Shown here: one piece after another, positions 15,424 to 62,580 of the stretch
How the letters are laid out: the number at the start of each line of letters is the position of its first letter
How positions within the stretch are numbered: position 1 is the first letter of the stretch
Virus record (IMG/VR): IMGVR_UViG_3300034064_001073
Coordinates: 15,874 to 79,873 of that record
Strand: one strand, 5' to 3'
DNA length: 64,000 nt
Source: a virus
The notes under the pieces: model-generated
What the model was told of the DNA's origin: nothing
The model's database searches: none
The model's input: the letters and a program-made list of their open reading frames with translations, nothing else
Position numbers and translations under genes: made by a program

Positions 15424-15552
15424 TTACCTTTTTAAGTGAGACTCAAATTTATTTAGTATGTCTGTAAAATAGACATAAGCAAGAAACGCCACAACAAGTA
15501 CGACTATTGCTGCAGATATTTTTATTCTATCAGTTAAAGATTGTTTGTCCAT
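15424..15552 (-). CDS. 42-aa single-pass membrane protein not in the ORF track
   Basis: MDKQSLTDRIKISAAIVVLVVAFLAYVYFTDILNKFESHLKR, with GGAGG 7 nt upstream of the ATG; fills the intergenic gap. Confidence 0.6.
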   Translation of the reverse strand: MDKQSLTDRIKISAAIVVLVVAFLAYVYFTDILNKFESHLKR

Positions 15553-15570
15553 AAGCAATCCTCCATAAAT

Positions 15571-15601
15571 AAAAAACCCACGTATATATTATATACGTGG
15601 G
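15571..15601 (-). terminator. Intrinsic terminator after the tail tube gene
   Basis: CCCACGTATAT/ATATACGTGGG inverted repeat followed by a T6 run on the minus strand. Confidence 0.8.
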
Positions 15602-15627
15602 CTTCTTAGGAGGTTTAACTAATACTC

Positions 15628-16266: not shown

Positions 16267-16284
16267 TTTTGTTCTCCTTTAGAA

Positions 16285-45141: not shown

Positions 45142-48100
45142 TATCTGCGCTCCTTGCGTCTGCCTCTGTTGCGTTCTAAGCCACCAGCCATTGCCATAAT
45201 TTGCATATCAGCCATACCGTTTTTCCTGCCTCTAGAAGCTGCGTTCACAGACTGAAAAATTTCATTATAGTCATTATAAGACATATCCATAGCATAGGTC
45301 ATTTCTTCGTTTCTGGCTTGTGAGGCGTCTACAGCCTGCTGCTTAGAGGTGCCAGGACTTCTATCAAAGTGGAACTTAAAAGCACTTGCAGGACTTAAAA
45401 CGTTATAGCCTTTTCTTTCTTTGCCAGGAATACCAGTATGTACACCTGCATAAAATGGATCCGAAAACATCCCCTTATCCGATGCTCTGGCTATTCTTTC
45501 TGCTGCGTTAAATTGCTTCTGGTTTACAAGATCTTCTTGGGCAGTATTTCTATATAGTACAGTTGCTAAGCCTTGATTGACCATTTCATATGAATAGTTG
45601 ATTCCAGAGTCGTCAGTTACAATACCAACTGAACGACCAAATGTACTACCCTGGCCAGTTACAACTTGGGCTCCAGTTCTAGCCGAAAGTACGTTCGTTA
45701 AGTATTGCTTGCCTCTTTGAGCAAATGGCATTTCGCCAGGACCACCAAAGCCTTCGTGAGCAGTTTCAGGAGCATCCATACCAGAAAGACGAACGCTACC
45801 AAGATTACGCCTACCTAAACCCATAAATCCTTTACTGATAATTTCTACTGTATCCGCGTCGCCAACTGCGTAATCAACTTTACTAGAATCAATGGCAGAC
45901 ACAGCAAAACCTGCAGGATTCATCTTATCAATACCAGTATTAGTGGGAGTCATGACATTTCGCATTGCCCCTCTTCCGCCTCTCTCCCTGACATCCTCAG
46001 GGTTAAGTATTTCTCTTTCATCGCCAGACATTTTCAGTATATCTTTTGTTGTAGGCTTGTAGCTTGGCATATCTACCATATAATTAGCAGAAGCTCCAGT
46101 GACAAATGCGCCAGCTGCGCCAGCCATACCAAGTCCTCTTCTTGCATTCTTCATAATGTACTCAGAAATCTCTGGGCTTGCTCCAGATATCCTGCTCATT
46201 AATCCACTGTCTAGTCCTCTTGGGCTAAAGAGAACAGAGCCAACTGTATCTACTCCTAATTTTAACTTATCTTTTGCAGAAACTGCAAAATTATAAGCAG
46301 ATCCGATTGTTTCATAATTAGGAGTAACAACCTTAGGAGTACTGTAATCGCCTGTCGCGACTAACTCTTTTTTTCTTTCAGATATAGCTTCATATATAAA
46401 ATCTGCAGAAGAAGCAAGTCTTTCAGCTCCTGAGCCCCTATTAAGTCTTGATCTAATCCCTTGGATTGTTGGAGCCAAAGAAGTATCTAGAGCGCTTCTA
46501 AAGCCGTCACCGCCTGACATTCTTAAAGCTAAAGAAGCACGAGACACTTCATCTTCTGTCATAGATGGAGTAACAGCTATTCCTTGTTCTGAAAGCCTAT
46601 CAACTTCATCTTGACTAAAAAGTCTTCCTGCCTGGTTTTCCTGATGAAGATGAGACTTAAGATCTAGAAGTCTACTGCCCAAATCTCTTGCTTTGATTCC
46701 TCTTGCTGTAAAGTTATCACCTTCAGCATACCTTCTAATGACAGTGCTCTTCACCCTATTTCTAGCAACGGTCTTCAACTCATCTACGCTGACAGGTAAA
46801 TCCGTACCCATTTGATGTCCTAGCTGACTCTTGATTATATCTTCAATTGGCATATTGCCTGCTTTCAACGCAGCAAAAGACCCACTACCATAACGCTTAT
46901 CAACGTGCATTCTTGTCGCTTCATCTAACTCTTTAGTGTATTCATCTTTGATGAAGTCTTGAATATTCCAGTCAGACTGACTCTTTAATACACTTACTTC
47001 CGCACCAGTCGCAGTTACCATTGTATGCTTTATTCTGCCAACAGCCATTGGCATAGAAAATGCTTCATGCATTGCTGGGTTTACATTTATTGTCTGCAAT
47101 TTTCCAGCTTCATCGGTGTAACTGTGAGTAATCATATTTGCAGGATTTGGAGCGTATAGCCCCTCTGCGACACCTGTGTAGCTGTCAACCGTTTCATTAA
47201 TTCTTAATAACTCTTTGTCTAGGTTATAAGCTCTTGTTATGTCAGAGTGCGTTCCTTTTATAGTGCCTTTAGTGGCATCTCTACTTAGTTGGCCTTGCTT
47301 AATTCCAATAGGTGTATCTCCAAACCATTTTTCATCAAGTTCCAATTCCGTATCTTTAATTTTTGCTAACTCAAGCCATCCCAGCTTTTTCTCGTCTCCT
47401 AAAATTGACAAGGATGAGAACAAGGAGCGCACTTGGTCTAGTGCAGACGCAGATTCCTTAGCACGGTAAATATTTGCAACATCATTTAGTACTTCAGGTA
47501 ACTTACCTTCTTGCAGTAGTCTACCCTGAACCATAACGTCAGATAAGGCTTGGTGAGCCTCATCAAAGCCAAGAATAACCTGTGAAGCTAAGTTAATATT
47601 CGTTCCAGATGTTAAGTCTCCACTAGTCTCTATCAGACCAGTCTGCATTAGCCCTGAGAATAACATCTTTGTAAGATCAAGCTGATCTCGGGTATTTAAC
47701 CCAGCTGATACATTCTTAACATAAGCAGGCAATAAAGAAATAACGTCTTCATTCTTACCTTGTTGTCTTAGTATTCTTGCTTGTTCCGTGAAGAAGAAGT
47801 TATTAGCATCAAGAATATTTCTTTTTCTTTCGCTTTTCCAAGTAGCAGAAAGCATGCTACGCATGTCTCTCAAACTTGTAATTGTTCCACCAAAAGCTCT
47901 AGACATGTCCCTGTCAGAGTTTAAGTAGTTACCGTGGTCTTCGAGTGAAGGCTCAAAAGCATCCGCAACGCCACTGCGTTTCTGCGTTAAGAAATGTTCC
48001 CAAAGTTTACCTACACGAAAAGACTCATATGGTAAATTTGCAGCCATAAGTGTTCTTCCTTCTTTGCTTGCCTGTTTGGCAAAAAGCATAGAATGTTTAG

Positions 48101-49100
48101 CTCCTTCTTTCTGGCTGTATACTCTTTGCCCAGACTTTAACTCTAGGTAACCTTCCTTTTTTAATTGATTCTGAAGCTCTTGTATTCTAGCTTCAGTTAT
48201 AATTTTACTTCCACTTGGACCTTCTCCGTATTCCTCATAGAATTCGCTAAGCCAAGGAAACTTCCCACTTGCCCAAGTACCAAATCTTTGCTTGAACTCT
48301 GCTTCGCTTCTAGGGATATAGCTAAAAGTTCTGAAAGTAGCCTCTCTGCTTCCGTCTGGGGCATCTTCCACATCTCTTATAATTGCCTCTGGCATAAGAT
48401 TCAACGAGAGGAATCCCTCTGCCATTTGTTCTTTAGGTGACATGCGCCCTATCGCAGCAGCAGCACTCAGGGCTGCGCTGTCGTTACTCGCTCCAACTGT
48501 CTTCTTTAGTTCCTCTATCTTTGCCATATCGCCCATAGCAATCTGCAAGATAGGAGCGTCTTTAAAGAGACCACCAGTTTCAATGTCTATAATTAGTGCG
48601 TTCTTAACAATGTCATCAAGCTTGAAATTAAAACCTGACATTGCCATAGCATCAAGCTTCAATTGTTTGATAGCAGTACTTGTTAGACCGCCAATAATCT
48701 CAGATGGCCTTGCCTTATCTTTGCCTGTCGCAAAGTTAGCCATTTGCTTGCCAACTTCCCTATACATCATTACTGCATCTTTTTTTACTTCATCTGTGTA
48801 AGAGAAAAAATTATCAGTATTCTCTGTTCCAATTAAAGTATCCATCATAGTGACAATCTTTTTATTGGCACCAGTTATATCATTTAAAAACTTAGTAGCA
48901 CCTAAGGTTGCGCGATAGGTACCTTTAAGGATTGATGTAGAAAGAGTAAAAGTTCCACGAACCGCAGCATCAATACCAGAGATAAAGTTAGTATGGTCGT
49001 ATTTACCTTTAAGCGCAGTAATAGCTTTAATGGGATCGGCATCAGGATTAACAAAGTAATCCTTTAAGGTATAGACCTTATCTCCTTTGCCATCCGCCAT
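45141..49100 (-). CDS. 1319-aa protein with an N-terminal DEDDh exonuclease-like domain and a C-terminal SNase (thermonuclease) domain
   Basis: IIDIETGGL...ILQIA, AANLPYE and HQALSDV match DEDDh motifs. GDADTV...VRLSGMDAPE...FGRSVG...VNQGLA...AERIARASDKGMF match SNase. Confidence 0.8.
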   Translation of the reverse strand: MADGKGDKVYTLKDYFVNPDADPIKAITALKGKYDHTNFISGIDAAVRGTFTLSTSILKGTYRATLGATKFLNDITGANKKIVTMMDTLIGTENTDNFFSYTDEVKKDAVMMYREVGKQMANFATGKDKARPSEIIGGLTSTAIKQLKLDAMAMSGFNFKLDDIVKNALIIDIETGGLFKDAPILQIAMGDMAKIEELKKTVGASNDSAALSAAAAIGRMSPKEQMAEGFLSLNLMPEAIIRDVEDAPDGSREATFRTFSYIPRSEAEFKQRFGTWASGKFPWLSEFYEEYGEGPSGSKIITEARIQELQNQLKKEGYLELKSGQRVYSQKEGAKHSMLFAKQASKEGRTLMAANLPYESFRVGKLWEHFLTQKRSGVADAFEPSLEDHGNYLNSDRDMSRAFGGTITSLRDMRSMLSATWKSERKRNILDANNFFFTEQARILRQQGKNEDVISLLPAYVKNVSAGLNTRDQLDLTKMLFSGLMQTGLIETSGDLTSGTNINLASQVILGFDEAHQALSDVMVQGRLLQEGKLPEVLNDVANIYRAKESASALDQVRSLFSSLSILGDEKKLGWLELAKIKDTELELDEKWFGDTPIGIKQGQLSRDATKGTIKGTHSDITRAYNLDKELLRINETVDSYTGVAEGLYAPNPANMITHSYTDEAGKLQTINVNPAMHEAFSMPMAVGRIKHTMVTATGAEVSVLKSQSDWNIQDFIKDEYTKELDEATRMHVDKRYGSGSFAALKAGNMPIEDIIKSQLGHQMGTDLPVSVDELKTVARNRVKSTVIRRYAEGDNFTARGIKARDLGSRLLDLKSHLHQENQAGRLFSQDEVDRLSEQGIAVTPSMTEDEVSRASLALRMSGGDGFRSALDTSLAPTIQGIRSRLNRGSGAERLASSADFIYEAISERKKELVATGDYSTPKVVTPNYETIGSAYNFAVSAKDKLKLGVDTVGSVLFSPRGLDSGLMSRISGASPEISEYIMKNARRGLGMAGAAGAFVTGASANYMVDMPSYKPTTKDILKMSGDEREILNPEDVRERGGRGAMRNVMTPTNTGIDKMNPAGFAVSAIDSSKVDYAVGDADTVEIISKGFMGLGRRNLGSVRLSGMDAPETAHEGFGGPGEMPFAQRGKQYLTNVLSARTGAQVVTGQGSTFGRSVGIVTDDSGINYSYEMVNQGLATVLYRNTAQEDLVNQKQFNAAERIARASDKGMFSDPFYAGVHTGIPGKERKGYNVLSPASAFKFHFDRSPGTSKQQAVDASQARNEEMTYAMDMSYNDYNEIFQSVNAASRGRKNGMADMQIMAMAGGLERNRGRRKERR

Positions 49101-50417: not shown

Positions 50418-50950
50418 GAATTCCTCTTCGTTACTATTTATCTCTAGTAATTAAACTTTCCTATAAGAGCTGATACCATAAATTTTGCTGTATAGGGACA
50501 AAAGAAAAGCCTTATATATTATTTAAGGAAAGCTCTATATATATTTTAGGAAAAAAGTCTAAAGAAAAGCTAGGGGAAAAGGGGGTATAGGTCTAGGATA
50601 AAAGTCCTTTATCTCTGTAACTTATATTTATTTTTATATTTTTATGGAAAAGAGTGGGTACTTATACTCGTGGGCCCCTATACTTACCCTACCCCTATCC
50701 CGTTTTAGCCCACCCCCTTTAAAGACTATGTACCAGGGGATGAGGGTCTTTCCAACTCTCACCAATTGCTAGCATCCCGCTAGCTTTGGACATTACCCCA
50801 CAAGGGTAGTAAGGAACGCCATGTGCACGCTCGCACAAGCCCCCACCCCCACCACACACACCTCCATCACACACACTACCATGAATAACATTCATAACAA
50901 CAATAACAACACCATCACGAATAACGATAACGTCAACATCAACGAAGAGA
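50418..50950. other. Divergent strand-switch region with a composition boundary
   Basis: Gene orientation flips here. An AT-rich tract is followed by C-runs and a G-free C/A tract (50840-50882), and GC and codon usage change abruptly. Confidence 0.7.
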
Positions 50951-50955
50951 AGAAA

Positions 50956-51762
50956 ATGAAGATCGACCGCGAAGATAAGTTCATGTTCTCTATCATTATG
51001 GTACTTGTTACGTTCATTACGACACTGTTCATCTATTCGGTGAGTATCACTCGTGAACATGCGGCGGCTATGTATGAGAAAGAAGTCCGTCAGGCTGTCT
51101 GGGTAGCCGATAGCGACTATGCAGAGGTTGTGATGCAGTTGGAAGAGTACCTTGACGAAAAGTTTCATGCAGAAAACAATATCCACCATGGTATTGGCCC
51201 TGTTGCAACCAAAGGCGATAAGGGCCCTCTTGAGGACACTTGGGACTGTACCGCTTGGAAGTGGAAGGGTAAAGTCTATACGGCAGAACACTGTGTACGT
51301 GAAAACTACGAGGAAACTATGGGTGACGTAGTTGTATCGGCTGATAAGTACCCCCATGCCATCAAAGAGGATCTATATGACATCGGTATTGAATGTAGCA
51401 CGGATCTGCGCTGGTGGGGTGCGAATACGGACATGTGGGGCTACATTCCTTTTGAGCAGGCATTTAATCACTATAAGCAAGTAGTGAATGGTGCAACTGT
51501 TACTAATCAGCGCTTCATCTGTGCTGCTAGCATCAGCCTTGAGATTGCTCCTGTGGTTGGCGACTCTGGTGGCCCGCTTATGGCTGGTGATGAAGTCATT
51601 GGCTTCGTCAGCTATGGTGAGAGCCCGAAGTGGGCTGACAGTGATATGCTTGAGAACTTTGACATCAAATATAAGGACGCCCTATATGGTGACCTTACAT
51701 ATTGCTGGGGTGTACTGGATAGAAGCCAGGATACGATCAGCAAGTCGGAACAGTCCAACTAA
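50956..51762 (+). CDS. Membrane-anchored trypsin-like serine protease
   Basis: YTAEHCV (His), YDIGI (Asp) and GDSGGPL (Ser) triad motifs, plus an N-terminal TM helix. Start is uncertain (ORF is open from 50821). Confidence 0.85.
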   Translation: MKIDREDKFMFSIIMVLVTFITTLFIYSVSITREHAAAMYEKEVRQAVWVADSDYAEVVMQLEEYLDEKFHAENNIHHGIGPVATKGDKGPLEDTWDCTAWKWKGKVYTAEHCVRENYEETMGDVVVSADKYPHAIKEDLYDIGIECSTDLRWWGANTDMWGYIPFEQAFNHYKQVVNGATVTNQRFICAASISLEIAPVVGDSGGPLMAGDEVIGFVSYGESPKWADSDMLENFDIKYKDALYGDLTYCWGVLDRSQDTISKSEQSN

Positions 51763-54700
51763 TGCTTAATAACATGAAAAATAACATCAACATTAATAAG
51801 GTGAATCTCATGTACAAGTTTCTTGCTCTTGCTTTTGCCATCTTCTTCGCAGTGGAGTTTGCTATGTTTGATATTGTGGAAGTCATGAAGAATGTTCTCA
51901 TTGCCGTTGCCCTTGTTGCCACTGGTGCATTTGCTGCAATGCTAAAAAACAACATCGCCCTTACGGGCAAGGAGAATCCCGCCATGGGAATTGAGCGTTT
52001 GGCCTGTACGGCTCGCATCTTCGTTGCAAGCGTTATTGCAGCGATCTTCCCTGTCGTGACCGCTCAGCATGCGGTCGAAATCCACTTCATCTTCGGCTTT
52101 ATCAGGTCGATTGTGGAGAGTGTTGCTCTGCAGTCTAAGTCGTTCCGCGTTAAGATGGCAAAAGTCATCAAGGCTCGCGGTCGTCGTATGGCCAAGGCGA
52201 AAAACTGGACGGTCATCCGCTACCAGCGTTGGTTGGTAAAGTGGGGCATGGCCAATAAGGCAAAGAAGGCAAAGATGAAGAAGAGCAACAACAGCTTTGT
52301 TGTTAAGGTAAGCAAGATGTCACGTGAACAGCGCCGTCGCCTTGCTCACCAGTGGCGCAAGAAGGCAGGAATTAAGCACGTGAACAAGGTTGTCTTGCCA
52401 TCTGACAAGAAGGAGCCGATGTTCATCTACAGCGAGGGATCCAAGATTCCTGGTGGCCGTAAGAGCTCGCCGCCTGCCTTTATCCATGTGGCAACAACCA
52501 TTGCCGCACGCAAGCGCAACAACAACGGTGGAAAGAACGTGAAGACTGGTCCTGCGTTCAACACTCGTGCCAGGATTCTTGCACAGCTTGACCGCAAGAA
52601 GAACGAAAAGACTCGTCCTCAGAACGAGATCAAGGCGCGAATCGCTGCACGCAAAGCAGCTCGCCGCCACGTCAGGGCAAACAGCCCTATCTTGGCAATG
52701 ATTGCCGCAATCGCCATCACTGGCCGTGACTTGGCTGATTCCCTTATGGGGCAGTCGCTGACGGAACTTCTGCAGGGTGGGCCTGCATTTGTGATCTTCG
52801 GCATCATTGCCGTCATCTGTGGCCTTGCTCTTCTCAACTGGGCAAATCAGGAAGAGAAGAAGGGCGATAATGGCGACGAGACGGGCAAATTCCGCCTGTA
52901 CAGCGGTCCCTTTGTGGGCCAGGGAGAGAATATGGAAGACGACAATACCCAGACCGCCAAGGAGGTCAAGATGGGAATGATTGAGAACAGCAATAACGTG
53001 CTTCGGGCTATCCTCGAAAAGCTCACGGGGGTTGGCAATGAAATGACGTCTCCGATGGCTAAGAGCGACAGGGAGGTTAAGACTTATGGTCGTACCCTTG
53101 ATGCCCTTGGCTACGAGGAGACGGCTCTCACCATCCTCCATAAGGGTTTCCGTAAAATGGTCATTCGTGACCTGACGGACGACGATGTTCGTGCCCTGGA
53201 AGGTAAGTTCATCTGGAAGACCGAGAACTGCATGGTTATCGTCCGTGACAGCCAGCAATACGAGATGCCCAATGAGTGCTTTACTGCACTGATGAAGGCG
53301 GTCGTGGTTGCTGGTCAGGTCCCTGACAGCAAGAAGGTTGTAACCCTGCAAGAGGTCAACAAGTACATGGGCTCGCTCCTGTGGGCTCGTGCCTCGGTGG
53401 TCTCCATCAAGCTCAGCGAGATCCTTGTCATGAGCAAGGCAGTATCGGATCTCTACGACGGCACCGTCTACGTTTCGGCCACGTTTGCGGCTCAGGCTGG
53501 CTGGCAGGGTTACGCGATTCGTCGTATCCTCACGGCCAAGGGCTTGGTCAAGGGCATGGTTATCGTGCTCCCTGACACGTACTTCCCGGCCGGTATCAGC
53601 ATCATTGCGAGTGAGATCAAGCAGCACTTGTCTCTTCGCAACGATAACGGTAAGGCCATTGTCATGCAGCCTCAGGGCGATGGTCACAGTGGTTCGGCCC
53701 GTACACTCTCCATGCAGCTCTGGGCAATGATCATGGGTGTCTTTGTTGGCAGCAAGCGCTTCGATGCGTTCGCTAGCGACAGCTACAAGGATGCCATGAA
53801 CGGCTTGGACAAGGCCACGGAGAAGATGCTTGATCCTGCTGAAGAAGGCGAGGATGGCCGTGACAAGCTGCTGGCAGAGGCGGCACGTCAGCACGGGTTC
53901 AATCCCGTCGCGGCATTCCGCAGCTACGGCATGGCCCTTGCGCAGGGTCTCACCAAGGCCTTCAACCCGAAGAAGGTCAACCTTGCACCTAAGAGTGCTA
54001 ATGGCAAGGTCCTCGCTCCTGAAGGGTATCCCATGATGATCCCCTGGATGGCGCTTGCCGATGCATTCACTAATGCCAAGCAGGATGTACCCGCCTGGAT
54101 GGCAGAGAAGCTTGAGGTCGCTATCGTTATCGAGAAGGCCTTGATGAAGCGTGCGAATGGCGCTATTCCTGTACTTGTGAGCAATCTCAAGATGCTGGAT
54201 GCTGCCAAGGTCAACGGCATCCGTCAGTATGTCATTGCTGCGATTGCTACTCGTATCCCGACGGGTAAGACCTCGGGTATCGAAGTTCTCCTGTTCGACG
54301 CTGACGAGTTCGGCACCCGTCCTGTGGACATCGGACCTGGCCTTGTCGGTCGCAAGAGCAAGGATGTAGAGTTCTGGTTGTTCCCCAACCAGGAGACTCT
54401 TGCATTCAAAATGGCTTCGGAAGGCGGCGACGATGATGACCTTTACAAGTTTCTAACTGGCAAGCTCCTTGAGATTGCTCGTGACGGTCTTGTGTGGCGC
54501 GACAGCATCCTCGAAGAGACCTCTGAGTCAAAGGACAAGGAGACGAAGCTGCGTAATTTCCTCAAGAAGTTCGCAGCAGAGATGCGCATCGACAAGGGCA
54601 AGCTTACCGCCATGATGGACATGCCCTTCGCCAAGAAGTTCGCAGCTGGTAAAGTTATGGTCGGCTGGCCGTCGCTCCTCGGCGTCAAGAAGGTATCCGA

Positions 54701-57700
54701 TGGGTACCGCATTGAGATCGAGGAAGTCAACGAGGACGCTATCTTTATGACGGTCAACAGCCGTCAGGACATCGAAGCGCAGATGGACTTGTTTGCGAAG
54801 ACCATGGTGGCAAACAATGATAGCCCGTTCAGCGCGGCCATCGGTACGGTCGCGCAGTCTCACAAGTTCGCCTTGGGCATCTTGGCGGGTCACGTTGTGC
54901 TTCCTGAGCACATCCGTCACATTGCCAAGGACTGGGCGCTGTTCGTGGTCCGCACCATCCTGCTTTCTGACATGGTCGATGCCTGTAACAAGGGCAAAGG
55001 CTACAAGAAGGCTGCAGAGGCACTCCAGGAGCTCAATTGGGCCTGGGGCTGGCTCTGTTACCAGATTGCCAAGGTCGAGGACGCTAAGGTCGTATGCCCC
55101 AGCCAGTACCTGGTAAGCGTGCCTCCCATGGCTCGTGACCTGTTCAAGGCCCGTCATGCAGAGACCTATGAGCTGGATGGCAAGACCCGCAAGCCTGGTT
55201 CAATGCTTGCTAACTTGTTCAGCTACCATGAAAAGCTGGGCAATGCGGTAGAAGCTCTTGCTACCAGTCAGCATGACCGCATGGAGTTCGCAGCTACCGT
55301 GAGCGTAATGGCTGACGCAGTTTCGATCCCGATGGGTGGTGCTCCCTCTGCCCAGGCGTTCGTTGCTCCTATCTGGAAGAAGGTCTGGTCGGAGAGCGGT
55401 CGTCTCAAGACCTACCTTGATGGCCTTCAGTGGCTGTCTGAGCGGAAAGAAGAGGGCAATGATGACGTCAAGGCTAATCAGCGCTATATGGCTGAGCTCA
55501 ACGACATCACGGTGTGGGCGGCTCACGCGGAATTCGACATGACTGTCCTTGCTGCTCTTGTGGACGCCAATCCCAAGGCAAGCAAGGCTGAGATCGAGGC
55601 TATGTTCAAGATCGCCAAGCTTGCCATGATTTACGTCAATGGCTTCAAGGCGCTGCACGTACCAGACAACAGCATCAAGATCATCATGGACAAGGACGGC
55701 AAGTTCGTGGCCTCGGGTGGTGTTGCTGGCTACCTTCTTCCGACCTGTGGCTCAAGCAGCTGTGTCGGCAAGGATGGAGAGGCGGAGTTTGTGGGTGGCA
55801 GTGAGATCCTCATCGAGTGGATGATGGATCCTGCGGTCATTGCTGCAGTCGCCGCACGCAAGGCTGTTGATGGCGACTTCAAGTTCGTGACCTTTGTCAT
55901 GAAGACGGATGCCTTCGGTGATGTAGTCAACGGTAAGCGTCCTCTCCTTTACACGGAAGACGACTTCACTGGTAAGACCGTCATGGAGATTCTCGGGATG
56001 CCTGGTGTCTACTTGGCTGGCAATACCGATGATGAGGCTCACGAGATGCAGAGCACGTTCCTTGCTGGCATCGCAGACGATGTCAAGAAGAAGCGCAAGG
56101 ACACGCTTGTTGCAATGAAGCGCGCGATTGCCGACGCCAAGGCCCGTGCTGCAGAGGCTAAGACGCAGAACAAGCATAAGCTTTATGCTCAGCTTATGCA
56201 GCAGGCCGCAGAGGCTCAGGACAAGCTGACCGCCTTTGCCGCGAGCTCGTTCGCAGAGCTTCTTGGCGCATTCAAGATCCGCAGCGTCGAGGAGAATGTC
56301 AAGGGCACTGCAGTTGTCGAGACCATCGACACCTTCCTCTGGCAGGACGCTAAGAAGCAGGCGTATGCTCAGTACCACAACACCTTTGTTATCGTCAAGT
56401 TCGAGTCTGACTCGGATCCTGAGGGTGACAAGGTTGAGGTTGTTGCTCCTGTTGAGGTTGTCGCAGCTCCTGTGGTGCCTGCTGTTGTGGCTCCTATTGT
56501 GGCTCCTGTTCAGAAAGATAAGGGTGATCTTCTTGGTCGGCTTAACCGCATTCATAATGTCAAGGAGCCTGCTGTTGTGGCAACTCCTGCCGTGACTCCC
56601 GTTTACCGGATCGCTTTCACGGGTCACCGCCCTGAGAAGATTGGTGGCTACGATGAGAGCAGCCCGATGCGCGTCGCTGTGAAGAACGCCATTGCAGATG
56701 CATTGAAGCGTGCAATTGCTAAGCATGGCGAATCCAAGGAGATCATCGTCGTTACGGGCGGTGCCCTCGGTGTAGATACTGATGCAGCCCGTGAAGCGTA
56801 CAAGCTTGGTCTTAAGTTCATCGTGGCGCGTCCTTGCAGTGACCACGGTGAAAACTTCAAGGCTGACGCTAAGGTTGCCTATCAAAAGATGCTCAAGATT
56901 GCTCATAAGGTTGTTCTCGTCAATGAGCAGCCGTACGACTTGGCAGGCAAAGCAGACTGTCTCCATGCCCGCAACCGCTGGATGGTCGACAACTGTGACG
57001 CTGTCGTTGCTATCTGGGACGGCTCTCCTAGCGGCACTTCGAACTGCGTTGCCTATGCAAAGAAGGCCAATCGTCCAATGATCATCATCAACCCGAATGA
57101 TCTAATGGGCAACGAACCTACTCCTCCTAGTGATCCTAAGCCTGCTCCTGAGACTGCTCCTAGTGTGAGATCAACAACGCTTGGTCTTCCTAATCGTCTT
57201 GCAGATCAGGTTGAAGTTGAAGCCAAACTCGGACTTCCTGAGGATGGTCGTAGCTTTACTGGAGAAATCCAGACACCAAACGGAAATACGATTGCAAGCA
57301 AATATACCCGCATTGTGTACGGCGACCATGGTCCCTACATCGAGCTCGATGCTGCTAGTGTTGACCTTAGCAAATGGCAGATCCGTCAGAAAGGTTCTCA
57401 GGCTTGGTATGACGAAGCCCGGCTTGATGGAGTAATGCTGTACATTCAAAATCGGGATGTCAGCACCCTCCCGAATCCTCCTGCGGGCGCAAAGTCTACG
57501 CGCAACAACCGCCCCGAAGGGTATGCAGACTATCAGCCAGGAATGCTGTACGTTGATCCCTTTAAGGTCAAGATTGTTCCTGCTGCTACTGTATCAGAGG
57601 TTCCTGCTGTGAAGAATGAACGCAAGGACTATCCCATCAGCGGTCATACCTACCGTGAGATCTTCCAGGAAAATGGCAAATATAGTGCTGAACTTGCAGA

Positions 57701-58292
57701 GAAGTTCTTCGACCTTGATTACGTCCTCGATCTGCGGCGCGAACCTCAGAACCAGCATGACAACAATGCGATTGCCCTGTATGCTCAAAGGGACAAAGTC
57801 GGATACGTGCCTAAGGATCTTGCAAAAATGCTTGCCCCCATGATAGATGCTAATCCTAGACAGAAGTACAACTTCCAAGCAGTAGTCACTGGTTGGGATT
57901 CTGGCTATCCTCGTTTTGCCTTGGAATTTGTAACCGTTCATCAGGGTCGTAAAGGAAAAGAAGATGGCCGCCAGTACCAGTACTGGGCAGTTGACAAGAA
58001 TGAAGCAAAAGACTACGGCTCCTTTGTTGACACAGCAATCGTCTCCCTCTCGACTATGATCTCCACCAAGGAAAATCCTGCGCGTTGGGACGAAATGAAG
58101 ACTCAGTACTCTAAGGTATCTGGCTACTGGTTTGACCTCTGCGATGGAGATACGGAAAGCCACAATAAGTTCTTTGCTTGGTTGGAAAACCAGGGACTCA
58201 CTGGTATCAACTTCCTTGGCGGCGAAGATAACAAGTATGTCGTCACCTTTGGAACTAAGGTGATTATGTCGCGCAAGAGCAATGTAGGCTAA
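51762..58292 (+). CDS. 2176-aa YonO/cellular-RdRP-like single-subunit RNA polymerase fused to SLOG (YspA/DUF1273-like), an unknown domain and HIRAN
   Basis: YDGTVYVS...R...KGLVKGMV...SEIK fits barrel 1 and ATRIP...LFP...ASEGGDDDDLY fits barrel 2. IAFTGHRP...TGGALGVD...RNRWMVD...WDGSPSGT is SLOG. LRREPQNQHDNNAIAL...VGYVP is HIRAN. There is a strong internal GGAGG-ATG at 52961-52973. Confidence 0.75.
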   Translation: MLNNMKNNININKVNLMYKFLALAFAIFFAVEFAMFDIVEVMKNVLIAVALVATGAFAAMLKNNIALTGKENPAMGIERLACTARIFVASVIAAIFPVVTAQHAVEIHFIFGFIRSIVESVALQSKSFRVKMAKVIKARGRRMAKAKNWTVIRYQRWLVKWGMANKAKKAKMKKSNNSFVVKVSKMSREQRRRLAHQWRKKAGIKHVNKVVLPSDKKEPMFIYSEGSKIPGGRKSSPPAFIHVATTIAARKRNNNGGKNVKTGPAFNTRARILAQLDRKKNEKTRPQNEIKARIAARKAARRHVRANSPILAMIAAIAITGRDLADSLMGQSLTELLQGGPAFVIFGIIAVICGLALLNWANQEEKKGDNGDETGKFRLYSGPFVGQGENMEDDNTQTAKEVKMGMIENSNNVLRAILEKLTGVGNEMTSPMAKSDREVKTYGRTLDALGYEETALTILHKGFRKMVIRDLTDDDVRALEGKFIWKTENCMVIVRDSQQYEMPNECFTALMKAVVVAGQVPDSKKVVTLQEVNKYMGSLLWARASVVSIKLSEILVMSKAVSDLYDGTVYVSATFAAQAGWQGYAIRRILTAKGLVKGMVIVLPDTYFPAGISIIASEIKQHLSLRNDNGKAIVMQPQGDGHSGSARTLSMQLWAMIMGVFVGSKRFDAFASDSYKDAMNGLDKATEKMLDPAEEGEDGRDKLLAEAARQHGFNPVAAFRSYGMALAQGLTKAFNPKKVNLAPKSANGKVLAPEGYPMMIPWMALADAFTNAKQDVPAWMAEKLEVAIVIEKALMKRANGAIPVLVSNLKMLDAAKVNGIRQYVIAAIATRIPTGKTSGIEVLLFDADEFGTRPVDIGPGLVGRKSKDVEFWLFPNQETLAFKMASEGGDDDDLYKFLTGKLLEIARDGLVWRDSILEETSESKDKETKLRNFLKKFAAEMRIDKGKLTAMMDMPFAKKFAAGKVMVGWPSLLGVKKVSDGYRIEIEEVNEDAIFMTVNSRQDIEAQMDLFAKTMVANNDSPFSAAIGTVAQSHKFALGILAGHVVLPEHIRHIAKDWALFVVRTILLSDMVDACNKGKGYKKAAEALQELNWAWGWLCYQIAKVEDAKVVCPSQYLVSVPPMARDLFKARHAETYELDGKTRKPGSMLANLFSYHEKLGNAVEALATSQHDRMEFAATVSVMADAVSIPMGGAPSAQAFVAPIWKKVWSESGRLKTYLDGLQWLSERKEEGNDDVKANQRYMAELNDITVWAAHAEFDMTVLAALVDANPKASKAEIEAMFKIAKLAMIYVNGFKALHVPDNSIKIIMDKDGKFVASGGVAGYLLPTCGSSSCVGKDGEAEFVGGSEILIEWMMDPAVIAAVAARKAVDGDFKFVTFVMKTDAFGDVVNGKRPLLYTEDDFTGKTVMEILGMPGVYLAGNTDDEAHEMQSTFLAGIADDVKKKRKDTLVAMKRAIADAKARAAEAKTQNKHKLYAQLMQQAAEAQDKLTAFAASSFAELLGAFKIRSVEENVKGTAVVETIDTFLWQDAKKQAYAQYHNTFVIVKFESDSDPEGDKVEVVAPVEVVAAPVVPAVVAPIVAPVQKDKGDLLGRLNRIHNVKEPAVVATPAVTPVYRIAFTGHRPEKIGGYDESSPMRVAVKNAIADALKRAIAKHGESKEIIVVTGGALGVDTDAAREAYKLGLKFIVARPCSDHGENFKADAKVAYQKMLKIAHKVVLVNEQPYDLAGKADCLHARNRWMVDNCDAVVAIWDGSPSGTSNCVAYAKKANRPMIIINPNDLMGNEPTPPSDPKPAPETAPSVRSTTLGLPNRLADQVEVEAKLGLPEDGRSFTGEIQTPNGNTIASKYTRIVYGDHGPYIELDAASVDLSKWQIRQKGSQAWYDEARLDGVMLYIQNRDVSTLPNPPAGAKSTRNNRPEGYADYQPGMLYVDPFKVKIVPAATVSEVPAVKNERKDYPISGHTYREIFQENGKYSAELAEKFFDLDYVLDLRREPQNQHDNNAIALYAQRDKVGYVPKDLAKMLAPMIDANPRQKYNFQAVVTGWDSGYPRFALEFVTVHQGRKGKEDGRQYQYWAVDKNEAKDYGSFVDTAIVSLSTMISTKENPARWDEMKTQYSKVSGYWFDLCDGDTESHNKFFAWLENQGLTGINFLGGEDNKYVVTFGTKVIMSRKSNVG

Positions 58293-58490
58293 TCTCTTTG
58301 CGACTAGAATGGTAAGCAACAAGCAGGCCATTTTTTTCTTCTTTCCTAAAATAGTCCAGATACTCCGCTGCCTTTGTTCGTTCCTCCGCGAAGGCCTATA
58401 TGTACCTTGTAATGCCTGCACCCGCCTGCATAGCCTCCTTCGTCGTCCAGATCTAGTGAGCACTTTTGCTCCTCTTGTACGGTGTCCCCC

Positions 58491-58673
58491 ATGGTCAATC
58501 CCGTTTTTGATGTCCTTACGAAGCCCCAACTCCTTGCGCTGCGGGCGATGCTCGTACACCAGGCCAGCCTCGACGAACTTGAGACCGCGGCCTACATCGA
58601 GACCTGCAAGACCCTCGTCGCAGAGATCGATGAGATGATGGAGCATGCCGAGATGTACTGCTCTGAAGTCTAA
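58491..58673 (+). CDS. Small early hypothetical protein
   Basis: Between promoter copy 1 and a terminator; codon usage like its neighbours. Start is 58482 or 58491. Confidence 0.6.
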   Translation: MVNPVFDVLTKPQLLALRAMLVHQASLDELETAAYIETCKTLVAEIDEMMEHAEMYCSEV

Positions 58674-58685
58674 CGCATCCTCTCA

Positions 58686-58717
58686 ACCCTCGGCTTCGGC
58701 TGGGGGTTTCGCTTTCT
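58686..58717 (+). terminator. Intrinsic terminator
   Basis: ACCCTCGGC-TTCG-GCTGGGGGT followed by a T-rich tail. Confidence 0.8.
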
Positions 58718-58915
58718 CACTCCGCTCCCCGGCCACAAGGCTCCAGCTGCAGCAGCCCTTCGGGAACCAGGCTCCGCTTCACAGTGGGGTAACTCCAGCA
58801 ACCAGGCCCTTCGGCCGCGACAAGGACCGTCAGCAGAGGGAAAAGAGGCCGGACTCCGCTGAATAACCAGATGGCTTGTGGCAACTAGGGGTCTTACGAG
58901 GCTCCTTCGTCGCCC

Positions 58916-59157
58916 AAAGCAGCGGATGGTGGCTGCCGCTACCCGTATCAGAGAAGGCCTGTCGGTCTCTGGTATGTATCAGACAGGGGCGGTTCCCAGT
59001 CCGCTTAACACAAAAACTGGCTGTCATCCCTTTAGGATGGCATGTTAATAAACGTCCCCTCTTGGACGTGTTCCTGGTAGTGGTAGTCCTACCTACTGCG
59101 TACCAGGATAGAGAGGTAAAGCCCCAGCACGGTAGGACGTGTTGGGGTTTTATTTTT
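58916..59157 (+). ncRNA. Structured multi-pseudoknot ncRNA, copy A
   Basis: Promoter-to-terminator unit with no credible ORF. Hairpin-loop CCTGTC pairs with GACAGG, CCAGT with ACTGG, and GTCCTAC with the terminator loop GTAGGAC. Homologous to copies B and C. Confidence 0.7.
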
Positions 59158-59221
59158 CTCACTCCGCTCAATAACCAGATGGCTCATACAACCAGGGGTC
59201 TAACGAGCTCCTTCGTCGCTT

Positions 59222-59555
59222 AAGTACGTGAGGTAGTTGCGCACCTCTTAGACATGCTCACAACCCTGGGTGAGCGTGAGGAGCCTAGCGAGGCAGGCAC
59301 AGAGGGAGAGTAGACTGGGCTCAATCCACCAGTAGATGCCACACCAATAGTTGTCGGGCATCAAAGCACTAGAAAGGGCCTGTCGGGTTCTAGTGTACAG
59401 TAGACAGGTGCGGTTGCCAATTCCGCATTACGATTTGGATAAGCCTCCTCTTAGGCTGATAGACTCGTAACTAGTAGTGACCCTGCTAGTGTCCTAATAC
59501 GAGATAGAGAAGTAGAGCCCCTGACACAGTAGGACGTGTTGGGGGTTTTATTTTT
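59222..59555 (+). ncRNA. Structured multi-pseudoknot ncRNA, copy B
   Basis: Same core as A with different stem sequences, an extra 5' domain of about 140 nt, and a near-identical terminator. Confidence 0.7.
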
Positions 59556-59623
59556 GTTACTCCGCTATATAACTAGATTACTAGTAAGTGTATAGTGGTT
59601 TGTTAGGGGCTCCTTCGTCGCCC

Positions 59624-59773
59624 AAAGCACTGGGCGTTGACGCTCTGCCATCTCCGTTGGTAGAGACTAGTTCTAATAGACGGGGAGTCCCAAGTCGTCC
59701 TTACGGGCTTGGATAAGACTATCAACAGAAGGACAGATTCCCACTACTAGGCCGGTAGTGGGTTTCTTTTTTT
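59624..59773 (+). ncRNA. Short pseudoknot ncRNA, copy C
   Basis: CTCTGCCA/TGGTAGAG stem whose loop TCTCCGT pairs with ACGGGGA; CCAAGT pairs with GCTTGG. Shares TTACG...TTGGATAAG with B and ends in the terminator CCCACTAC/GTAGTGGG plus a T-run. Confidence 0.6.
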
Positions 59774-59835
59774 GGCCTCCTTCGTCGGCCAGAGAACATG
59801 AGGCACTTTCGCCTCTTGGTCCATTGGAGGACAGC

Positions 59836-60048
59836 ATGAAAGCAGGCAAGTATCACTCCTACGACTGGCGCACAGAGCGGGATGCGGATGCTAATAGGAG
59901 CGTCTTCAGGGCCGCATGGAAGGCAAAGTTCCCTGGGGTCGTGCCGCAGTTCGCCATCATCTTGGATGACGGCAGTTGCCACTGGTGGAACGAGTGGCCG
60001 GATGGGCGGACTCGCCGCCTCCCGCCCGGCACATTCAACATCGAGTAA
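59836..60048 (+). CDS. Small early hypothetical protein
   Basis: GGAGG SD and ATG at 59836; lies between promoter copy 5 and the terminator at 60055-60087. Confidence 0.7.
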   Translation: MKAGKYHSYDWRTERDADANRSVFRAAWKAKFPGVVPQFAIILDDGSCHWWNEWPDGRTRRLPPGTFNIE

Positions 60049-60283
60049 AGATAGACCCCCTGACTTCGGTTGGGGGTTTTTCTTTTCTCACTCCGCTATA
60101 GACCTACAAGGCTCCAGCTCTCAGGCTCTTCGACGGTCGGCAGGTAGGAACCCAACAGCAAAAAGAGGCGAAAATATAGACTCCGCTATGGACCGGAAAG
60201 ACTTTCATCAACTAGTAGTGTAACGGCCTCCTTCGTCGGTTAGGTATGATGAGGTAATGTTGCCTCTGCATTGGAGAATGAAC

Positions 60284-60466
60284 ATGGATAGCGTTTTCTT
60301 TCTTGACAGCCTGAACAACGTATGGCAGACCTGTGGCGCTGACGATAACGATGCTGTGGCATTCGGGCCGAGGGGTTGCGCACGCCGCGTGCCTGCCGCC
60401 TGCTACAACGTTTACCAGAACGACGAGATCGAGGCTGGATGGCAGCTCATCGAGATCACTGGCTAA
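60284..60466 (+). CDS. Small early hypothetical protein
   Basis: GGAG SD; lies between promoter copy 6 and the terminator at 60473-60506. Confidence 0.65.
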   Translation: MDSVFFLDSLNNVWQTCGADDNDAVAFGPRGCARRVPAACYNVYQNDEIEAGWQLIEITG

Positions 60467-60613
60467 TGTGTGACCCTCTGGCTTCGGTCGGAGGGTTTCG
60501 CTTTTCTCGGCTCCGATGACCGGACGGATGGTTCCAGCTCCCAGTAGTCTTACGAGCCTCCTTCGTCGGCCAGAGCATCGGGCAATTGCGCCCCTATTTG
60601 ACTGGAGAATGTC

Positions 60614-61036
60614 ATGAACAGTGTGAACATGGTTGGCCTCCTTACGGCCAGTTCGAAGGTTGAGGGTGACTTTCTCTTCATCGTCCTGGACAACCAGGGC
60701 GAGATGCCGACTCTCGGTTTCAAGGGTAAGCAGAGAGAGGCGGTCGAGAAGTGGGGTGAGCCCAAGCGCATGGTGTCGGTGTCGGGCGCATTGCGTACCG
60801 TCATCAACGGCAACCAGAAGATGACCTTCGTGGATGTCGCCTATAGTCGCTTCCTTGACAGCCAGAAGAAGGTTGTTGAGGAAACGAAGGTTGCGGCCCC
60901 AGCAAAGGTTGCGGCCCCTGCGAAGGTTGCTGCTCCTGCGAAGGCTCCTGCAAAGGCTCCTCCGAAGGTCTCTGCAAAGGCTCCTGCCAAGGCTCCTGCG
61001 ACGGCTGCTCCAGTCGACAACGACGTGCCCTGGTAG
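60614..61036 (+). CDS. ssb: Single-stranded DNA-binding protein with an APAK-repeat linker
   Basis: MNSVNMVGLLT...VSVSGALRT...RFLDS fits the SSB OB fold; acidic-aromatic tail DNDVPW (compare DDIPF). Has its own promoter copy and terminator (61044-61078). Confidence 0.8.
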   Translation: MNSVNMVGLLTASSKVEGDFLFIVLDNQGEMPTLGFKGKQREAVEKWGEPKRMVSVSGALRTVINGNQKMTFVDVAYSRFLDSQKKVVEETKVAAPAKVAAPAKVAAPAKAPAKAPPKVSAKAPAKAPATAAPVDNDVPW

Positions 61037-61279
61037 ACTCGTGACCCTCTGGCTTCGGTCGGAGGGTCTTGCTTTTTGGGCTCCGCTCCCCGGCCACAAG
61101 GCTAGACCTACAACAGCCCTTCAGGAACAAGGCTCCGCTATAGACCTACAAAGTTCCAGCTCCCGTGGCTCTTCGGTCTGCGGAGGACCCGTCAGCAGAG
61201 AAAAAAGTGGCGAAAAATATAGGACCTCCTTCGTCGGTTAGGTTTTGTGAGGAATAGTCCTCGGAGTTTGGAGTATGTC

Positions 61280-61441
61280 ATGAAGTACGAGAAGGTTTCC
61301 CTTGAAGACTGCTATGGCGTTTCGACTGGCGGAGAAGATGACATGATCGAGAAGATCGATAACAAGAGCGAAGGAATGTGGGATCACCGCCCAGACCGTG
61401 TCGACTCGGAGTACATGGACTTCGAAGAGTACGAAGAGTAA
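61280..61441 (+). CDS. Small, very acidic early protein
   Basis: GGAG SD; 53 aa rich in D/E; terminator at 61448-61469. Confidence 0.65.
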   Translation: MKYEKVSLEDCYGVSTGGEDDMIEKIDNKSEGMWDHRPDRVDSEYMDFEEYEE

Positions 61442-61529
61442 AGAAATGGCCCGAAAGGGTTTTTTCTTTCCCCAGACTCCGCTCAATGTCTCGGATACTC
61501 GAACGATAAAGGGGCCTCCTTCGTCGGCC

Positions 61530-61959
61530 ACATTTATTGGGTTTTGACACTGGTCAGGCCAAAGATTTAAGGCGTCGAGTAGGTTACATTGCGAACTCTA
61601 GGGGATGTAAACCCTATTGCTCGTACTGCAAGACGTCACCTTCTAATCCTCTAGAAAAATCATAAGCGCGCCTACCGCTTATGGGAACCTAGAGGTGTCA
61701 GGGTTGCAAACCTGGCTATAAAGATAGGCTGGCTGCTAGTGGATCCCTGCCACTAGTGGACAAGATGAACATGGGGCTTTGTCTACTAGGTAGGACCCCT
61801 GCCGCTAGTAGCAAGATAGACATGGGGTGGTTACTAGTTCGCTAGTAACGACTGGGAAGGGGTTCGCACGCTAGCAAATAAGACGACCCGTACCCTTTTG
61901 ATTAGTCTGGTGACGCAACGGACCACACGCGGCTATGGGTTCGATTCCCATATGATTGA
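61530..61959 (+). ncRNA. About 430-nt structured RNA with a tandem pseudoknot repeat and a 3' tRNA-like element
   Basis: No ORF; dense inverted repeats; duplicated unit at 61733-61776 and 61783-61827; T-arm TATGGG-TTCGATT-CCCATA at 61934-61952. Confidence 0.6.
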
Positions 61960-61988
61960 ATTACTTTACCCGTCCTAAGGAGGACACA

Positions 61989-62447
61989 ATGAACATGAAT
62001 GAGCGTCTTGAAGATTTCGTAGAGAAGATGGGAATGCGATTGGGGTTCTTGTGGGATACTACTGCCAGCTTGACCTGGAGTGGTAACTTTGGGCCGACTG
62101 TCGAGAGGGTAGAGAAGGAAGGTGAGACGATGATGGGCGATTTCTACCTGACCAATGGATTGCTGCACAGCGATCACTGCGGACACAAGGCGACGTTCAC
62201 CATCAGTGTCCCCGGCCAGCACCCAGATGGGTTCATCATGAACTGGCTGAAGATCGAGATCACGAACCTTGACTGGAATGGCGACGGCATCACGCACGAT
62301 GATCCGACTTACTCCCTGCCTGAGTTGAGTTCCAAGTACAACAAGATGGAGTTCAGGGAGGGCTTGAAGTTGGCGGAAACGTCTGCTCAGATTATCGTGG
62401 ACTTTGAAATGGTCTTGGAGGATGTCAAGGCCTCCTTCGTCGGTTAG
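61989..62447 (+). CDS. Early hypothetical protein
   Basis: AAGGAGG SD and ATG at 61989. Promoter copy 10 overlaps its last codons. Confidence 0.75.
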   Translation: MNMNERLEDFVEKMGMRLGFLWDTTASLTWSGNFGPTVERVEKEGETMMGDFYLTNGLLHSDHCGHKATFTISVPGQHPDGFIMNWLKIEITNLDWNGDGITHDDPTYSLPELSSKYNKMEFREGLKLAETSAQIIVDFEMVLEDVKASFVG

Positions 62448-62580
62448 GTATCGTGACTAGTAGGTCAACAGTCTGCAACCTGCCTGTCGGTAGGATAACC
62501 TATCAGATGTCATGTCTGGTAGCCACAAAGGCTGAATCACTTCCTTATGGTACAAAACTGGTTCGAATCCAGTTAGGAAG
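62446..62580 (+). ncRNA. Structured leader ending in a minimal tRNA-like element
   Basis: Several hairpins, then CTTCCT...AACTGG-TTCGAAT-CCAGTT-AGGAAG at 62540-62580. Confidence 0.5.

Follow-up and report, generated by a model that had tools for sequence, protein, structure and literature searches.

A giant open reading frame beside the late genes

We analyzed the final 64 kb (hereafter the window) of a 79.9-kb IMG/VR virus record (IMGVR_UViG_3300034064_001073; estimated completeness ~46%). The DNA is from lake water and belongs to a contractile-tailed phage (a sheath gene is present). The window opens with a minus-strand late block (1-50.4 kb) that encodes sheath, capsid, portal, and terminase plus several very large open reading frames (ORFs). 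The first long plus-strand gene after the strand switch is a giant ORF (P0001; 51762-58292, plus strand) of 2,176 residues, in which an N-terminal membrane/basic region is followed by a two-barrel polymerase, a linker, a SLOG domain, a domain that is tentatively beta-tent-like, a HIRAN domain, and a tail. Judged from its predicted structure, the core of this protein is a member of a new, rare, and unannotated family of phage single-chain two-barrel polymerases having a DxDD loop. No report of a DxDD form of two-barrel RNA polymerase (RNAP) was found in the literature searched. Two related genomes were used for comparison: G001, a complete, terminally redundant 174-kb relative with a polymerase homolog 50% identical to that of the window, and G002, a distant relative (84% complete) with a homolog 27% identical.

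The original prediction had the gene begin at position 52971. That position is an in-frame methionine codon (Met404) and a possible second start, but the open frame begins at 51762, 403 residues earlier. The N-terminal region thus recovered (residues 1-403; 51762-52970) has hydrophobic segments at residues 13-63, 77-105, and 333-363, and a basic stretch (residues 127-330) in which 54 of 204 residues are Lys or Arg versus 9 that are Asp or Glu. The region is present in homologs, where it is weakly conserved and ranges in length from ~385 to ~2,000 residues. The candidate internal start (52959-52973) consists of an in-frame AAGGAGG, a 5-nucleotide spacer, and the ATG of Met404. As Met404 is invariant (13/13 homologs) and follows AAGGAGG, and as the preceding Lys-Glu codons (AAG GAG) are widely conserved (G001 has AAGGAG there), internal initiation giving a soluble polymerase isoform is possible.

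Predicted fold and conserved motifs of the core

An AlphaFold2 model of residues 404-1560 was built from the family alignment (predicted local distance difference test score, pLDDT, 88.2; predicted template modeling score, pTM, 0.83). When this model was searched against the PDB with Foldseek, the only significant matches were QDE-1 (3e-6), RDR2, P32 gp64, P74 gp62, crAss-like phi14:2 gp66 (5e-3), and P23-45 gp96. VIA-align gave Z scores of 11.8 for P74 gp62 (456 residues), 11.7 for QDE-1 (513-631 residues), 11.5 for RDR2, 10.9 for P32 gp64, 8.5 for gp96, and 5.9 for gp66. A Foldseek-independent search of 48,161 chains returned ZmRDR2 (Z 14.0, 600 residues), QDE-1 (11.4), and gp62 (11.3), the remaining rows matching just a helical hairpin (model residues 1025-1108). 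Among viral models the matches were uncharacterized Caudovirales proteins, phage proteins labeled RdRP (RNA-dependent RNA polymerase), P23-45 gp64, and crAss-like proteins. The top matches are therefore single-chain two-barrel RNAPs (Z 11-14 over 400-630 residues), and the model has two double-psi beta-barrel (DPBB) domains arranged as in QDE-1 and the multisubunit RNAPs. At the level of the predicted model the two-barrel fold of residues 404-1560 is established, and the fold on which the original prediction had staked its case was thus found.

The first barrel (DPBB-B-like; residues ~523-653, 53328-53720) was delimited from the strand pattern of the model, and its assignment, which follows the element order of the two-barrel matches, should be read as probable. 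It carries R588, K597-G598, and E618-x-K620. These supply nearly invariant candidates (K597-G598, K620, and R588, by sequence position only) for the two basic residues expected of DPBB-B. The second barrel (DPBB-A-like; residues ~752-901, 54015-54464) comes from model alignments: an isolated DPBB domain (9lgo) matched model residues 349-498 with a root-mean-square deviation (rmsd) of 2.8 over 91 residues, and residues 474-656 of Pol I A190, a segment that we take to contain NADFDGD, matched model residues 337-511 (100 residues, rmsd 3.4). These alignments place the Asp loop of the protein in the second barrel, at the expected site of the catalytic loop. An Asp cluster at the barrel interface had been forecast; the loop does lie inside the second barrel, as judged indirectly from the model alignments.

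The family is small. Close homologs number 13 proteins among 5.8 billion clustered proteins, and a HMMER scan of 1.84 billion cluster representatives gave only 20 clusters, the distant ones being 26-32% identical over the barrel region. The widest alignment has 28 sequences with identities of 21-70%. The series of motifs that the original prediction had listed upstream of the Asp run (DG, R..KG, S..K, R.P, and FP) is present and conserved as D566-G567, R587-R588...K597-G598, S617-E618-x-K620, R831-x-P833, and F874-P875. In the 13 close homologs S886-D893, Y895, R831-I-P-T-G-K-T-S-G839, D566, R587-R588, K597-G598, S617-E618, K620, and F874-P875 are invariant. Residues invariant throughout the 28 sequences are R831, P833, G888, D890, D892, D893, A1031, S1069, D1073, A1074, and A1084, with K597-G598, K620, R588, and D566-G567 nearly so.

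The putative metal-binding loop, G888-G-D890-D-D892-D893 (54423-54440), lies within the sequence S-E-G-G-D-D-D-D-x-Y, the Asp run D890-D893 being encoded at 54429-54440. The atypical GGDDDD site described earlier is real and is invariant in the 13 close homologs, but it is the close-clade version of a broader signature, (E/D)-G-x-D-x-D-D. The wider family conserves D-x-D-D rather than DDDD, as distant members have L, C, H, Q, Y, or R in place of the second Asp. Alignment of the putative catalytic loop across the homologs upheld the proposed shortening of DxDGD, G-D-x-D-D being invariant in all 28 sequences. The DxDD loop retains three carboxylates with the third displaced one position up. Note that DxDxD is a small region in which otherwise dissimilar families of two-barrel RNAPs retain sequence similarity (PMC10770324; PMC7824862). 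An invariant DxDD loop would mean that the two-barrel metal site tolerates a different geometry, and would make this family well suited to testing how Mg-A is coordinated.

The R-x-P motif (R831-I-P833, 54252-54260), invariant in the 28 sequences, lies 59 residues before D890, within the ~35-60 residues characteristic of the superfamily. From this position and spacing R831 is a candidate counterpart of beta' Arg425, the 2'-OH sensor. Arg425 is the main determinant of the choice of nucleoside triphosphates (NTPs) over deoxynucleoside triphosphates and is one of seven catalytic residues common to the two-barrel RNAPs (PMC7862312). Retention of the arginine therefore favors RNA synthesis. A third conserved block, LLSDMVDAxNKGKGY (residues 1067-1081, 54960-55004), is in a helical region after the second barrel, with K1077-G1078 nearly invariant; it may correspond to the bridge-helix/trigger-loop area (alignments with Pol II Rpb1 span model residues 336-750).

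The loop departs from the universal DxDxD, and the protein has carrier features that would suit membrane insertion and ejection. Both fit a catalytically dead polymerase fold that is kept as a structural or ejection protein, with DxDD as a degenerate remnant. We consider this very unlikely because a remnant would drift, yet none of D890, D892, D893, R831, P833, and G888 changes among 28 sequences whose overall identity is only 21-70%, and the first barrel retains its basic residues as well.

The nearest known enzymes differ from the giant protein in instructive ways. Neurospora QDE-1 and plant RDR2 are its best structural matches (500-630 residues); each has both barrels in a single chain with a similar order of elements, although identity is ~10%, the loop of both is DxDGD rather than DxDD, and the giant protein has a phage context and unrelated N- and C-terminal modules. 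YonO of the Bacillus prophage SPbeta is likewise a phage-encoded single-chain two-barrel polymerase in which R-x-P and W-x-x-P are followed, after 15-17 residues, by the Asp loop (matched by eye, YonO LRSPHL...KWFITP-(17)-FDNDGDKAL versus TRIPTG...FWLFP-(15)-GGDDDDLYK). However, YonO has FDNDGD, is only 839 residues long, and lacks fused domains. The likeness to YonO and the RdRPs that had been proposed thus holds for fold and for motif order and spacing, but not as a sequence link to YonO or to the Pfam RdRP family. Phages P23-45 and P74-26 provide further structural matches in their non-virion RNAP (gp62-gp64; Z 11.8, and 10.9 for P32 gp64) and virion RNAP (gp96; Z 8.5). In P23-45 one phage has two two-barrel RNAPs, each with its own promoter motif, and one of them (gp96) is a giant virion protein fused to the tape measure (PMC10770324). 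These enzymes have no sequence similarity to the giant protein and keep DxDxD; the giant protein has no tape measure and has SLOG, HIRAN, and other modules. The crAss-like phi14:2 gp66 (~2,180 residues) is also a giant polypeptide with an RNAP core. Both gp66 and the phage N4 virion RNAP (vRNAP), RNAP-bearing proteins of comparable giant size, are reportedly virion proteins. They offer a functional analogy, that of an injected polymerase reading early promoters, although N4 vRNAP has an unrelated T7-like fold and the phage studied here is contractile-tailed with a sheath, not a podovirus.

True RdRPs (RDR2 and QDE-1) are among the best structural matches, and several of the units downstream of the giant gene (see below) are apparently non-coding; both would suit an RdRP that copies neighboring non-coding RNAs, a use that the original prediction had raised. 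Against this, the characterized phage members that we compared (YonO, P23-45 gp64 and gp96, and crAss gp66) are described as DNA-dependent, and nothing in support of RNA templates was found in the sequence; we regard an RdRP as extremely unlikely.

Appended domains

The core is followed by the predicted Pro/Val/Ala-rich linker (residues ~1555-1612, 56424-56597), which is present as described, and then by the appended domains. The SLOG domain is of the YpsA type (residues 1617-1781, 56610-57104; Pfam YpsA, PF06908, 3.6e-14, 53.5 bits versus a cut-off of 27.7, model positions 1-168 of 168), with Pfam DprA (2.6e-8) and the PDB entry 2nx2 YpsA (1.2e-5) as further matches; SPbeta carries a separate YpsA-like gene, yoqJ. 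The HIRAN domain (residues ~1954-2060, 57621-57941) matched Pfam PF08797 over residues 1989-2031 (6.5e-11, 42.4 bits versus a cut-off of 24.7), and its fold matched those of lp_0118 (3k2y; Z 11.0) and the HLTF HIRAN domain (Z 9.1). Both scores exceed the Pfam gathering thresholds; the two domains are real and lie near the places given for them in the original prediction. The last residues (2061-2176, 57942-58289) form a tail having no domain match and low model confidence (pLDDT 36-58).

Between SLOG and HIRAN lies a domain of ~130 residues that has no Pfam model (residues ~1811-1945, 57192-57596) and carries the motifs NR..D, RIVYGDHGPYIE, PNPP.G, and NNRPEGYADY. This YGDHGPY...GYADY domain, already noticed from the sequence, proved to be a real, conserved unit with 14 homologs (P0031-P0044), 28 columns invariant in 15 sequences, and a model pLDDT of 82-95. 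Its fold matches are middling (83-96 residues): Mis18 Yippee (Z 7.2), YPEL5 (6.6), MsrB (6.3), and the cereblon CULT domain (5.8). We tentatively call the modeled fold beta-tent/Yippee-like; most beta-tent members carry two CxxC zinc knuckles, whereas no Cys is among the invariant or near-invariant columns here. Elsewhere the domain is found in fusions with SLOG, DUF4326, or AlkB-like 2OG-Fe(II) domains, and eukaryotic (MMETSP/EukProt) transcriptomes contain it too. A previously unannotated domain is thereby brought to light.

The set of appendages varies among the 13 close homologs: HIRAN is found in 8 and SLOG in 3, NADAR plus DUF4326 have been added in one, another has an N-terminal metallophosphatase, and 4 have nothing recognizable. 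Among distant members P0016 has HIRAN, whereas P0017 and P0018 each carry a fused PIF1-type helicase. A PHROGs search with the long homologs gave nothing beyond HIRAN-like families. The protein thus has several unrelated effector-type domains in an architecture that differs between orthologs, as do the polyvalent proteins of phages and conjugative elements, which are also very large and vary in their modules (SLOG, NADAR, DUF4326, HIRAN, and metallophosphatase); moreover, the gene adjoins the virion block. It differs from polyvalent proteins in lacking a MuF or portal fusion. The SLOG, NADAR, and DUF4326 modules of polyvalent proteins are interpreted as counter-defense tools (PMC5512222; PMC9503650). 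In the available part of the survey of such proteins (Iyer et al. 2017, PMC5512222), the polymerase cited is the T7-like N4 vRNAP and a two-barrel core does not appear.

Steering of the polymerase to single-stranded DNA (ssDNA) or DNA ends by SLOG and HIRAN is plausible by analogy, and a modular payload fits equally well. That the appendages shuffle among homologs weakens the idea that they are integral to the polymerase, whereas their common ssDNA/3'-end theme keeps that idea alive. On another reading the enzyme would be no transcriptase but an ssDNA- or 3'-end-directed polymerase, either a replicative or repair primase or a QDE-1-like end-initiating RNA synthase recruited by HIRAN, DprA-like SLOG, and PIF1. 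The distribution of HIRAN (8 of 13 close homologs plus P0016) and PIF1 (P0017 and P0018) and the DprA score of the SLOG domain are consistent with such a role, as is the activity of QDE-1, among the nearest folds, on ssDNA as well as RNA (PMC9508822). The archaeal replicative DNA polymerase PolD, which has a two-barrel core (PMC4996933), provides a replication precedent for the fold. However, 4 close homologs lack any such appendage, PolD was absent among the structural matches (Foldseek, VIA, and the Foldseek-independent search), and three phages have arrays of promoter-like and terminator-like units in tight linkage with the gene. The retained R-x-P arginine indicates NTP substrates, which would suit a primase but not a DNA polymerase. 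On balance an enzyme of this sort seems improbable.

The neighboring module and the proposed role of the polymerase

Directly behind the giant gene is an array of transcription-unit-like cassettes (58362-62442, plus strand), built of a terminator hairpin with a T run, ACTCCGCT, and then (G/C)CTCCTTCGTCG(C/G). The usual order is terminator, ACTCCGCT, 40-75 nucleotides, CTCCTTCGTCG, 25-45 nucleotides, and then either a ribosome-binding site and small ORF or a non-coding stretch. The terminator hairpins are strong. Ten exact copies of CTCCTTCGTCG (0.46 expected) and 8 copies of ACTCCGCT (1.2 expected) are present, all on the plus strand and all within 58362-62442. In G001 all 15 copies of CTCCT[T/G/A]CGTCG are on the strand of the polymerase gene and 12 of them lie within 7 kb after it, where ACTCCGCT also clusters. 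In G002 ACTCCGCT is again 3' of the polymerase gene, accompanied there by another second motif (GCTCGCTGCGCTCGCC).

The flanks of the CTCCTTCGTCG element pair: among 20 distinct copies, columns 8 and 20 form C-G in 10 and G-C in 8, a covariation score reached by no shuffle. Two compensatory double changes (GAC...GTT versus GGG...CCT) distinguish apparently corresponding units, one before the MKYEKVSLEDCY gene of the window and the other before the MFEKVSLEDCY gene of G001. Nearest-neighbor DNA folding of either strand of the element gave -0.7 to -4.3 kcal/mol (z ~0), no better than shuffles; to our knowledge the energy model does not account for GNA loops or tandem G.A pairs. The element is likely structured, its pairing being supported by covariation and not by folding energy, and it may act as a promoter, an RNA signal, or part of a terminator. 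The array also includes two paired non-coding units that are 76% alike (58950-58998 and 59371-59419, in the region 58946-59540). Situated after CTCCTTCGTCG copies and free of ORFs, they are probably templates for structured RNAs.

The module differs in composition from the late genes. GC content rises from ~39% in the late block (1-50400) to ~55% from ~51.7 kb, where the coding strand turns to plus, and the module as a whole (51700-62500) is GC-rich (47-55% versus ~39%). GC content at third codon positions (GC3) is 0.62-0.69 in the giant gene, 0.27-0.33 in most late minus-strand genes, and 0.47 in the capsid gene. The giant gene thus adjoins the late operon, yet has the composition of the plus-strand module. 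The same jump is seen in G001 (L004, 1-3000 versus 3000-18000), which keeps the gene order. We considered whether the GC jump might reflect a chimeric assembly and rejected this, as G001 has the same junction and jump with a flanking gene 81% identical, and as independent lake metagenomes yield identical contigs that cross 51706-52059 and 56433-58548. The stretch is found in many lake and freshwater metagenomes of different studies, and contigs of four independent metagenomes map almost without differences and without rearrangement joints, including at the start of the ORF and the C-terminal domains.

Immediately upstream is an ORF of 313 residues (50821-51762, plus strand) with an Asn-rich start, one hydrophobic segment, and a trypsin-like serine protease domain (Pfam Trypsin 6.1e-8; TAEHC and GDSGGP motifs). 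These features suggest a membrane-anchored, trypsin-like protease. Its stop codon overlaps the ATG of the giant ORF (TAATG). No protease gene is present at the corresponding position in G001.

Our preferred reading, to which we give a probability of roughly 0.6, is that the giant protein is the phage's own single-chain two-barrel transcriptase for the adjacent motif-rich module, although we infer its activity, template, promoter motif, and delivery from the model and its setting. The polymerase would make RNA on phage DNA and would serve the GC-rich plus-strand module directly behind its gene, where the short, individually terminated units, each having ACTCCGCT and a CTCCTTCGTCG element with compensatory flanks, would be its targets. 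The N-terminal hydrophobic/basic region and the variable C-terminal nucleic-acid and nucleotide modules would give the protein the build of a carrier, and the translationally coupled trypsin-like protease and the conserved internal start could give shorter forms. By analogy we lean slightly toward packaging of the entire protein and its ejection along with the DNA, rather than early synthesis, because of its giant size, its N-terminal hydrophobic/basic region, and its swappable payload, P23-45 gp96 being a virion precedent (PMC10770324). Such a protein would extend the known range of phage transcription machines to a two-barrel enzyme whose single chain also includes a DNA-3'-end reader, modules that bind nucleotides and, in relatives, a helicase.

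Several observations weigh against these proposals. For the polymerase part Pfam gave no family at E<=0.1 in the whole-protein scan and none at E<=10 for the barrel segments, the RdRP family PF05183 not being detected. The core had no match in PHROGs, PDB sequences (phmmer and profile), or the ESM Atlas, and a tblastn search of 50,697 phage records found nothing at E<=10. In hhalign the 28-sequence profile matched YonO with a probability of 0.2%, so homology to the YonO family was not detected. The loop departs from the DxDxD (DbDGD) triad that defines DPBB-A of the superfamily, its fifth position being variable (L/V/I/C/A/S/N/D). The ssDNA theme of HIRAN, DprA-like SLOG, and the PIF1 of relatives is more typical of replication and repair proteins. 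As to packaging, the giant gene has the GC3 of the plus-strand module, unlike most late genes, the G002 giant gene is preceded by an AT-rich element common to small upstream genes, and the tail operon already contains a second candidate polymerase (DFDGD).

This second candidate is a protein of 2,330 residues encoded by the ORF at the end of the tail operon (217-7209, minus strand) that contains GWQNPQIS-(45)-SSDFDGDTAAV. Its Q-N-P-Q and D-x-D-G-D do not vary among 8 homologs, and the G001 copy has DFDHD. From these motifs it is a candidate second two-barrel polymerase in which Gln replaces the usual Arg. Pfam, PHROGs, PDB, and ESM Atlas searches with it gave nothing, hhalign detected no similarity between it and the DxDD polymerase, and no homolog was found in G002 (84% complete). 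Both proteins are present in G000 and G001. A third co-occurrence is probable, as the longest contigs recorded for homologs of the two have the same length (149,650 bases). If the tail-operon protein is a polymerase, the phage parallels P23-45, with a virion RNAP and a separate early RNAP that have different promoter motifs. The polymerase gene would then adjoin its probable target elements in a phage that apparently has another two-barrel enzyme, of a distinct type, as well.

Further support for such a cascade comes from the region upstream of the giant gene. In G002 (L006, 1180-8060) nine units of terminator, TACTTAAATAGT, and TATGGGCTAA lie upstream of the giant gene, the last directly preceding it, and beyond the gene another class of motif takes over. 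A related TACTTATACT is found in the conserved intergenic region upstream of the giant-gene operon, both in the window and in G001. The G002 motif TACTTAAATAGT is not enriched in the 64-kb window (12 matches versus 8.3 expected). The conserved intergenic region is AT-rich (TATATAT..., GGAAAAG repeats, and TATGGAAAAGAGTGGGTACTTATACT) and separates the late operon from the giant-gene operon (window 50420-50700; L004 2840-3090; L006 330-560); it may contain divergent promoters or an origin.

These data bear on a different assignment, in which the giant protein is the non-virion early polymerase of a P23-45-like two-polymerase cascade: the tail-operon protein, injected, or the host RNAP would act first, and the DxDD enzyme would read the GC-rich motifs behind its own gene. 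The co-occurring tail-operon protein with its invariant Q-N-P-Q...S-x-D-F-D-G-D (8 homologs), the composition that the giant gene shares with the plus-strand module, its position in G002 after the last AT-rich TACTTAAATAGT...TATGGGCTAA copy, and the similar TACTTATACT upstream of it in the window and in G001 all fit. There is also a precedent in P23-45, where AT-rich vRNAP promoters drive the gene of the non-virion RNAP (nvRNAP) and GC-rich promoters serve the nvRNAP (PMC10770324). However, the non-virion phage two-barrel RNAPs that we compared are compact (YonO, 839 residues; P74 gp62 and P32 gp64 chains of ~590 residues), whereas the proteins of this family, with 2,176-3,763 residues, hydrophobic N-terminal segments, and swappable effector domains, resemble a packaged carrier. 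Moreover, the tail-operon protein is a candidate polymerase by its motifs, and no homolog of it was detected in G002. An early, non-virion role is a serious possibility to which we give somewhat less than even odds.

The N4 enzyme is said to use DNA hairpin promoters. On the template strand the CTCCTTCGTCG-type element reads CGAC-GNA-GGAG, that is, a C-G-closed GNA triloop with tandem G.A pairs and covarying Watson-Crick pairs, and the only variable base of its core is the N of the putative triloop. A two-barrel polymerase could thus have converged on the N4 strategy of reading small template-strand DNA hairpins rather than duplex promoters, with HIRAN, DprA-like SLOG, and PIF1 modules as part of the mechanism. 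We hold this to be doubtful; if true, the active site, shortened DxDD loop included, would be adapted to hairpin templates.

Some minor features of the window were also observed. A late-block protein of 1,319 residues (45141-49100, minus strand) ends in a staphylococcal-nuclease domain (Pfam 7.9e-12). Segments resembling tRNA T arms, GGTTCGATTCCCAT and GGTTCGAATCCAGT (61900-61960 and 62540-62580), are each followed by ACTTTACCC and a ribosome-binding site; ARAGORN and Rfam gave nothing at either. Within the array a small ORF (60614-61036, plus strand) ends in tandem Ala/Pro/Lys repeats (KVAAPA and KAPA) encoded by 12- and 18-nucleotide repeats, and similar repeats are found at the corresponding place in G001 and G002.

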